Sequence record: KM389297.1
Strand: one strand, 5' to 3'
From: Escherichia phage CBA6
DNA length: 9,022 bases
This document shows, piece by piece, positions 5,402-6,133 of the stretch. The stretch's first letter is position 1, and each line of letters opens with the position of its first letter. The notes below the pieces were generated by a model that saw nothing but the letters and a program-made list of their open reading frames with translations, did not search any database and was not told where the DNA came from. The position numbers and the translations under genes were made by a program.

Positions 5402-6133
5402 ATGTCATATCTACACAGAATTTTTGGTATTGAATTCAGTTCCAACAGCGTTCGTTATGACCGCACTCACAAAGACTCCGGCGGCAAGACTGGTTACGAA
5501 CTTGGATCTCGTTTGGGGTATACTGAAGAGCGCCGCCTGAGTGAACAAACTCTTTTCACAGCTATGGGTATTGAATTTGAATCCGAGGCTGCTTTAGATC
5601 TGGGGGATGAGGTTCGTTTTGGTAAGCCTGAAGTCTTAGAATTTGTTGAAGACTTCGTGACAGGTTATACCCATGCCGCTAACAATCGTCGCGCCGCCAA
5701 TGATGCTGTTGGTAAATTTCATTTTGCTGTGAAATACCTTGCCGACAAGCGTATTCAAATGGAAGCCGAATTCAGTGAAGAAAACTTGAAAGCAGTTTTC
5801 GGAGAGACTGGCGATTTCCTATTGACAGAAGAATCCGGCACTTCTTCCGCTCGTCATTTCTTTAGTCAACCGTTTATCGTGAAGGGATGTAAAATTCTGA
5901 TTGATGAAGAACATGTTTTTGGTATTCATCCGGATGTTGTATACGATGAAGAGACGTGTCTGATCATTTCCAGATTGTTTAACAGCCTGGCGTACACTTC
6001 ATATTCATTGATCGAACGCTGTATGGAAGAAGAGCATCGCCAAGTTGTTGTCAACAAAATTCGCTTACATGTTGAGCAGAATTTTAATGGATTCCATTGC
6101 GCGTCTGGTGAGATTCCAAACTTCTACATGTAA
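5402..6133 (+). CDS. Hypothetical acidic protein (243 aa)
   Basis: ATG 5402 with GAGG 8 nt upstream; clean 243-codon frame with no competing long ORF on either strand; codon usage similar to gene 32. No recognisable catalytic motif. Confidence 0.6.
   Translation: MSYLHRIFGIEFSSNSVRYDRTHKDSGGKTGYELGSRLGYTEERRLSEQTLFTAMGIEFESEAALDLGDEVRFGKPEVLEFVEDFVTGYTHAANNRRAANDAVGKFHFAVKYLADKRIQMEAEFSEENLKAVFGETGDFLLTEESGTSSARHFFSQPFIVKGCKILIDEEHVFGIHPDVVYDEETCLIISRLFNSLAYTSYSLIERCMEEEHRQVVVNKIRLHVEQNFNGFHCASGEIPNFYM

Follow-up and report, generated by a model that had tools for sequence, protein, structure and literature searches.

A rapidly diverging orphan gene family directly downstream of gp2 in enterobacterial Ackermannviridae phages and its promoter-like stem-loop element

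Introduction

Which role does the uncharacterised gene that directly follows gp2, the gene of the DNA end protector, play in phages related to Vi01? Biocontrol is a widespread actual or proposed application of phages of the family Ackermannviridae (Vi01, CBA120, LIMEstone), and over half of the genes in these phages lack an assigned function. The gene considered here is among the few uncharacterised genes that all enterobacterial genera of the family retain, although its rate of divergence exceeds that of its neighbours about tenfold. Fast divergence combined with retention often marks proteins that face a changing partner. Knowing its role would clarify how DNA ends are handled together with gp2, or how the host is taken over. 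Already known is that the gene is listed as hypothetical, a label that its family has carried since 2010 and now carries in about 270 phage genomes (269), and that it belongs to a PHROG. The present analysis adds the limits of the family, a confident structure prediction without known relatives and the regulatory context, as well as evidence against the product being a gp4 analogue, a gp2 paralogue, a hypermodification enzyme, a DNA mimic or a virion protein.

Results

An intact and conserved coding sequence behind gp2

We analysed a stretch of 9,022 nucleotides of Escherichia phage CBA6 (KM389297.1), hereafter the window, which represents a Kuttervirus genome segment close to Salmonella phage Vi01. 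It encodes, in this order, a RuvC-like resolvase, gp33, gp32, a baseplate tail-tube protein (minus strand), gp2, the gene under study, a 95-aa ORF, a 319-aa acidic protein and a 5-hmdU DNA kinase, which is the first gene of the thymidine-hypermodification/nucleotide-metabolism operon. A preliminary description of the locus had placed the gene between a late gene and the modification genes, and this holds, with gp2 upstream and the kinase operon downstream. The features of the locus are as follows:

4635-5339, plus strand: gp2 DNA end protector, the upstream neighbour (PHROG 429, E 1e-69; PF26869 in related contigs)
5340-5365, plus strand: promoter-like element immediately behind the gp2 stop codon, composed of the box TTCTAAAA (5340-5347), a 12-nt spacer and the -10-like hexamer GATAAT (5360-5365)
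5345-5379, plus strand: predicted stem-loop with the arms AAAGCCGTTC and GAACGGCTTT and the -10-like hexamer in its loop (RNA fold -15.7 kcal/mol, z -2.3)
5391-5394, plus strand: Shine-Dalgarno-like GAGG, 7 nt before the ATG of the gene, as read from the sequence
5402-6133, plus strand: the gene under study, encoding 243 aa and belonging to the Vi01_064c / Sajous1 gp27 / CBA120 orf078 family, PHROG 4253 (ORF listing, tblastn, Vi01 annotation)
6151-6438, plus strand: 95-aa ORF (Vi01_063c, PHROG 4562), starting 17 nt after the stop codon of the gene
6517-6544, plus strand: sigma70-like promoter, TTTACA, 16 nt, TATATT (best site in the promoter scan, 10/12 matches)

The gene is a real protein-coding gene, because several lines of evidence agree. 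The reading frame runs from ATG to TAA through 243 codons without interruption and is preceded by GAGG, which bears out its initial portrayal as a clean and well-initiated ORF, and a purine-rich GAGG/GGAG occupies the same spot in other lineages. The product is 100% identical to Vi01_064c (orf00071) of the Kuttervirus Vi01 and in at least 29 Kuttervirus records including Sajous1 gp27 (tblastn), and the gene is an annotated CDS in Vi01 and in every related genome examined. Homologues of 236-274 aa reside at the same locus in lineages down to 18% identity. Finally, two Kuttervirus alleles differ with a dN of 0.12 and a dN/dS of about 0.04, a rough ratio as dS is saturated.

All 269 records of the gene come from Ackermannviridae-type phages of Enterobacterales, except one Pseudomonas-named and one Enterococcus-named record. 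We inspected 14 contexts, comprising Kuttervirus, Limestonevirus, Taipeivirus and Agtrevirus genomes as well as eight metagenomic contigs of distant members. The gene directly follows gp2 in 13 of the 14, at a distance of 57-75 nt; this includes seven of the eight contigs, and the exception is the most distant homologue (P0034; contig L009). All contigs that are long enough display the Ackermannviridae gene order. On L009, which measures 1.4 kb, an unrelated 159-aa ORF without PHROG match (133-612) lies between the C-terminus of a gp2-like protein and the homologue, whose start it overlaps; the slot between the two genes appears to be an insertion hot spot. The 95-aa ORF, which is probably co-transcribed with the gene, is present in Kuttervirus, Taipeivirus, Agtrevirus and the contigs L008, L010, L011 and L013, whereas it is absent from LIMEstone1 and contig L007, where a terminator-like hairpin directly follows the gene instead. 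Its N-terminus is conserved as M(K/R)(K/R)Y(V/L)RLNTVLES. The sigma70-like promoter at 6517-6544 opens the next unit with the 319-aa protein and marks the downstream boundary of the cassette; in LIMEstone1, the corresponding position is annotated as a putative early promoter.

The preliminary description had asked for presence and absence across related phages. The gene is retained in all enterobacterial Ackermannviridae genera, and the search with its profile revealed no homologue in Vibrio Ackermann-like phages, neither after gp2 nor among the two ORFs upstream of the kinase. These phages share the same overall gene order and a gp2 with 47% identity; however, an unrelated 410-aa ORF follows gp2, and the kinase operon has moved elsewhere with a homologue of the 319-aa protein (28% identity) still directly upstream of the kinase. 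Therefore, the 319-aa protein remains associated with the kinase operon, unlike the gene under study, and gp2 can exist without the latter.

The strict adjacency to gp2 could point to a role related to this protein. As a non-structural factor, the product might load gp2 onto DNA ends or into heads, or guard replicating or concatemeric ends from host exonucleases, and the two genes would be co-expressed through read-through of the stem-loop. The adjacency in lineages down to 18% identity speaks for such a helper, as does the T4 genome, where gene 4 for head completion also lies directly after gene 2. On the other hand, there is no homology to T4 gp4, for which the 27-sequence profile of the family yields an hhalign probability of 0.1%, or to gp2, with an hhalign probability of 0.4%. 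Moreover, Ackermannviridae have a gp4 homologue of their own elsewhere (Vi01_033c; LIMEstone1 ORF21, PMC3296691), and the Sajous1 protein gp134, designated 'Head closure', may be another. Both a positional analogue of T4 gp4 and a diverged gp2 paralogue, the latter an idea that arose from the similar length and opposite charge, were rejected on these grounds. Since gp2 also occurs without the gene in T4 and in the Vibrio phages, and the inserted ORF on L009 separates the two, we consider a gp2 helper unlikely, while giving the idea some weight.

The fastest-evolving gene of its neighbourhood

In comparisons of Kuttervirus with the other genera, identities amount to 90-93% for gp2, 88-89% for the tail tube, 78-86% for the 5-hmdU DNA kinase and 71-76% for gp32, as compared to 30-35% for the product studied here, whose gene is the fastest-evolving of its neighbourhood. 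That gp2 is still 92% identical where its neighbour has dropped to 30% is a further argument against a tight functional coupling as helper. When phages of the Vi01 and CBA120 types are compared, the neighbouring genes exhibit dN values of 0-0.011, whereas the gene combines its dN of 0.12 with a saturated dS. This suggests that old alleles were exchanged by recombination rather than generated by simple drift in place. Uneven dS values were also observed across the window (859-8294, compared with CBA120, L019), with the tail tube at 0.17, gp2 at 0.8, RuvC at 1.9 and the gene above 3, and several of these proteins are nevertheless 100% identical between both types. Variation of dS from gene to gene with identical proteins indicates mosaic recombination under very strong purifying selection.

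A recurrent promoter-like element within a stem-loop

Directly behind the gp2 stop codon, all lineages except L009 have a pattern of the type TTC(T/A)AT(A)A, 11-12 nt, (G/T)ATAAT ahead of the gene, and its family form reads TTCAATAA, 11-12 nt, TATAAT. The element may act as a promoter; as the window holds the most degenerate copy (TTCTAAAA, 12 nt, GATAAT), the promoter strength at this gene is doubtful. A similar stem-loop is predicted in six of the eight lineages (z -1.4 to -6.9), with stem sequences that differ, and the -10-like hexamer usually falls within its loop.

In the Vi01 genome, the strict motif occurs seven times as compared to 0.56 times in shuffled sequences, and a relaxed version 22 times against 4.4 expected. 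All seven strict copies (26269, 30005, 32709, 38922 and 41169 on the minus strand, 133994 and 148125 on the plus strand of the Vi01 record) are intergenic, in sense orientation and located 25-40 nt before a start codon. Located downstream of them are the gp59 unit, the ligase unit, Vi01_053c, the operon of 5-hmdU kinase, ThyA, gp1, dUTPase, UvsX and gp41, the gene under study, Vi01_177, and Vi01_193, the gene after the DNA polymerase. Six of these seven units are of prereplicative type, the exception being Vi01_177, which is without functional context. The window itself contains the recurrent motif (TTCAATAA, 11-14 nt, TATAAT) at 5340-5379 and at 7587-7625. The motif hairpins are GC-rich, several of them are followed by T-runs, and in CPT-annotated genomes a 'terminator' feature is recorded in the interval that holds the hairpin before the kinase gene. 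The motif looks like a composite of terminator and promoter resembling the PeSL cassettes. For the gene under study, the stem-loop is devoid of a U-tract in most lineages, which makes read-through from the gp2 late promoter plausible and would suit the gp2-helper reading. Literature searches for Ackermannviridae yielded neither a description of the motif nor a transcriptome.

Late expression was considered as well. The tail tube (minus strand) and gp2 (plus strand) are separated by an intergenic region (4581-4634) with divergent late promoters that are conserved across lineages, namely an exact TATAAATA on the minus strand (4615-4622) and TTTAAATA on the plus strand (4594-4601). Because of the latter site and an annotated late promoter before gp2 in LIMEstone1, late read-through into the gene is possible. 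The late-like TATAAACA at 5381-5388, directly before the gene, has one mismatch and is found in Kuttervirus only; with its absence from the other genera, a conserved T4-type late promoter at this position was rejected.

Homology searches and predicted structure

The product matches PHROG 4253 over its full length (residues 1-243 to positions 1-242 of 243, E 2.5e-117). This PHROG is hit by all 27 family members, whereas PHROGs 30166 and 37228 are hit by 14 and 12 of them, respectively, and only weakly by the product itself. None of the three carries a functional annotation, and these were the only profile matches that emerged when the HMM check proposed at the outset was carried out. Scans against Pfam and NCBIfam with all 27 members including the product gave no match, nor did a search of PDB sequences with profiles built from 11 or 27 sequences. 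Among the PADLOC-DB defence and counter-defence models, no family reached E <= 1 for the product, and results for the 27 members were empty or inconsistent. A word-indexed protein search with a wide alignment added nothing, an Rfam scan of the window was negative, and a literature search by locus tags and accessions retrieved nothing on the gene. When 1.84 billion cluster representatives were searched exhaustively with HMMER, only 25 clusters were recovered, all single-domain and of similar length. In sum, we encountered neither homology to structural or metabolic proteins nor a lack of conservation, the two outcomes that the preliminary description had named as speaking against its proposals.

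AlphaFold2 returned the same topology with 11 sequences (pLDDT 77) and with 27 sequences (pLDDT 93.5, pTM 0.84), and the latter scores predict a compact fold with confidence. The model comprises an N-terminal beta-hairpin (4-13), three short helices, a long helix (76-115), an alpha/beta insert (~116-182), a second long helix (183-227) and a C-terminal tail. Fold searches, for which the first model (pLDDT 77) rather than the later one (pLDDT 93.5) served as query, matched no known fold. Conservation is concentrated in the first 90 residues (R6, F8, G9, E11, R18, D20, T30, G31, G35, D84, G88) and recurs at M208, N240 and Y242, the last two within a PNFY(L/M) tail; it is lowest in the alpha/beta insert. 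A use of the PNFY tail as a docking motif common to replisome proteins, e.g. for clamp binding, was rejected, as no other Vi01 ORF of at least 60 aa ends in N[FV]Y.

The conserved residues are mostly polar or charged, complemented by glycines, and fit an active site as well as a binding site. The product could accordingly be an enzyme with a new fold that acts on nucleotides, DNA or a small molecule, contributing an accessory step to DNA metabolism or degrading a host signal. The invariant or near-invariant R6, E11, R18, D20, T30, E33, D84, N240 and Y242, set in a sequence that is highly divergent elsewhere, would then form the active site together with G9, G31, G35 and G88, and both the location between gp2 and the hypermodification/nucleotide-metabolism operon and the promoter-like element shared with DNA-metabolism units would make sense. 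However, neither a conserved His or Cys nor a known catalytic motif is present, the sequence searches in Pfam, NCBIfam and PDB and the fold searches with the first model were negative, and Vibrio relatives keep the kinase operon and the 319-aa protein with no detectable homologue of the gene at the gp2 or kinase locus. In addition, the thymidine hypermodification of ViI was rebuilt from gp67, gp160, gp226, gp243 and gp247 only (PMC8989533), and hence does not need the product. An enzyme is therefore improbable in our view, and a specific role in thymidine hypermodification (5-HMUDK, aGPT-Pplase, PLP decarboxylase etc.) was rejected for want of Pfam or NCBIfam homology and of co-occurrence with the pathway in Vibrio phages.

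Acidity, the GIEF repeat and the idea of a DNA mimic

Two features had initially been regarded as distinctive, namely a high content of Asp and Glu and a repeat-like GIEF...GIEFESE pattern, and neither stands out upon closer inspection. With a pI of 5.10, 16.5% D+E, 10.3% K+R and a net charge of -15, the product is ordinary beside its neighbours in the window, most of which have a pI of 4.55-5.15, and its family covers pI 4.7 to 6.2, net charges of -3 to -17 and 10-17% D+E. GIEF occurs at residues 9 and 56, and one repeated 4-mer arises in 31% of shuffled versions of the protein. The first copy, embedded in a conserved FG(I/V/L)EF, is kept throughout the family, whereas the second is specific to Kuttervirus and replaced by, e.g. 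LGVKLD or MGISED in other lineages. An internal duplication was rejected accordingly, the shuffles identifying the repeat as a chance event.

The initial hint at a DNA-mimicking anti-restriction protein of the Ocr/ArdA type fares no better. True, all members are mildly acidic, the predicted structure contains long helices, and the gene is probably expressed before replication. However, DNA mimics such as Ocr and ArdA contain roughly 25-30% D+E, a density that neither the product nor any part of the family range attains, and no fold match was obtained with the first model. We give this reading very little credence.

Experimental data from related phages

Published proteomes argue against a virion protein. 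In CsCl-purified Sajous1 virions analysed by LC-MS/MS, gp27, the counterpart of the product, is absent from a list that extends down to single spectra and includes gp26 (gp2) with 3, gp29 (the 319-aa neighbour) with 10 and gp134 ('Head closure') with 21 spectra (PMC10892097). Likewise, the counterpart ORF048 is not among the 39 proteins of the LIMEstone1 virion proteome (PMC3296691), and in the LIMEstone1 record it lacks the 'confirmed structural protein' flag that the nearby tail tube ORF50 carries. Absence from virions is negative evidence, as low-copy proteins can be missed, and the product might indeed be packaged in few copies and injected together with the phage DNA, in the manner of gp2 or of the T4 internal proteins. 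Its gene lies behind a late gene with a packaged product, and the 3 spectra of gp2 itself place low-copy proteins near the detection limit. Nonetheless, two independent proteomes that both list many trace proteins are without it, and the late-promoter consensus before the gene is confined to Kuttervirus, so that a packaged protein is very improbable.

Observations on the neighbouring genes

The kinase gene of the window (7644-8294) is the orthologue of ViI gp67 / Vi01_061c. As compared to Vi01 and CBA120, it carries a 12-nt deletion after 7689 and a CGA-to-TGA nonsense change at 7716-7718, upstream of the P-loop, and the reading frame reopens only at a TTG at 7725. None of 217 matching phage records has these lesions, which could mean that the gene is a pseudogene, that translation re-initiates or that the sequence contains an error; the second 5-HMUDK of ViI (gp243) might compensate for them. 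The records of Vi01, LIMEstone1 and CBA120 as well as PHROG 800 list the same gene (7644-8294; L001:11243-11905) as 'terminase small subunit', an error that is propagating, since Pfam PF18748 and published biochemistry identify the kinase (PMC8989533). The 319-aa acidic protein (Vi01_062c, PHROG 3905, 6612-7571) has a pI of 4.6 and a net charge of -24, and the sigma70-like promoter before it (6517-6544) is strong. It keeps its position upstream of the kinase in Vibrio phages and yields 10 spectra in Sajous1; a link to the kinase operon or packaging into virions is conceivable.

Discussion

Taken together, the gene defines a well-delimited orphan family. Our preferred reading, tentative and held with less than even confidence, is that its product is a partner-binding accessory factor, non-structural, intracellular and prereplicative, of the host-takeover or counter-defence class. 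Restriction to one clade, absence from virions, a promoter-like element of its own, fast divergence with retained architecture and a confidently predicted fold all favour this reading. We do not think that it is a virion component, a DNA mimic or a hypermodification enzyme.

The partner-binding factor would be a soluble, non-structural protein specific to Vi01-like phages (Ackermannviridae), expressed during infection from a dedicated promoter-like element of sigma70 type that sits in a stem-loop directly after gp2. This element would provide prereplicative expression, to which read-through from the gp2 late promoter may add a late component. Together with the 95-aa ORF, the gene would constitute a small cassette flanked by two conserved blocks, gp2 and the block of 319-aa protein and 5-hmdU-kinase operon. 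According to model and alignment, a conserved N-terminal domain, made up of several helices, a beta-hairpin (RIFGIEF) and the motifs TGYELG and DFxxG, would be followed by an antiparallel helical hairpin with arms of roughly 40 residues (76-115 and 183-227), which would carry the poorly conserved alpha/beta insert (~116-182) as a small head, and by the conserved tail ending in PNFY(L/M). The invariant N- and C-terminal elements would provide a constant binding site, leaving the remainder free to diverge, and the protein would act on a phage or host component during infection.

Genes in such accessory stretches had been proposed from the outset to serve host takeover or anti-defence, and this proposal is upheld in part. 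Absence from virions, an own sigma70-type promoter-like element and very rapid evolution fit an intracellular accessory role, whereas retention in all enterobacterial genera of the family argues against a classic accessory gene; a counter-defence factor tailored to particular hosts would not usually be kept in all genera irrespective of the host. A bolder version, which we regard as decidedly unlikely, would be an effector with a new fold that is made before replication and either shields DNA alongside gp2 or disables a conserved enterobacterial defence or nuclease component. The polar cluster (R6, E11, R18, D20, T30, E33, D84, N240, Y242) would then be catalytic or ligand-binding and the variable alpha/beta head would track the host. 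If true, this would reveal a new counter-defence family specific to Ackermannviridae. On balance, the family is ordinary phage dark matter and a reasonable, though not surprising, candidate for knockout and pull-down experiments. The promoter/stem-loop motif may be more immediately useful, as it provides an entry point to the transcription programme of Ackermannviridae, which is still to be mapped.

How does the gene compare with known systems? With regard to PHROG 4253 the relation is one of simple membership. T4 gp4, the head-closure protein (phrog_218), shares position relative to gp2 and orientation with our product; it differs in length (150 versus 243 aa), in its match to phrog_218, which the product does not show, and in that the latter is missing from the Sajous1 and LIMEstone1 virions. 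Ocr of T7 and ArdA are likewise acidic phage or plasmid proteins, made early (a timing that is presumed for the product) and directed against host nucleases, but they display no sequence match to it, and its charge density is about half of theirs, with a basic complement of 10%.

A further parallel concerns the regulatory element rather than the protein. PeSL and PmSL cassettes of T4-type phages are composites of a promoter with a stem-loop or terminator that flank uncharacterised genes between core blocks (Arbiol et al. 2010, PMC2839356; Comeau et al. 2014, PMC4122927). The element before our gene has the same hallmarks, that is a sigma70-like promoter sequence combined with a stem-loop, recurring in intergenic regions. 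Differences are nevertheless apparent. In the Vi01 motif, the box TTCAATAA lies 11-14 nt from the -10 hexamer, a geometry that recalls T4 middle (Mot-box) promoters more than a TTGACA box at a distance of 17 nt, and the -10 hexamer resides inside the loop. Moreover, genes flanked by PeSL or PmSL cassettes vary in their presence, whereas the gene described here is kept across genera.
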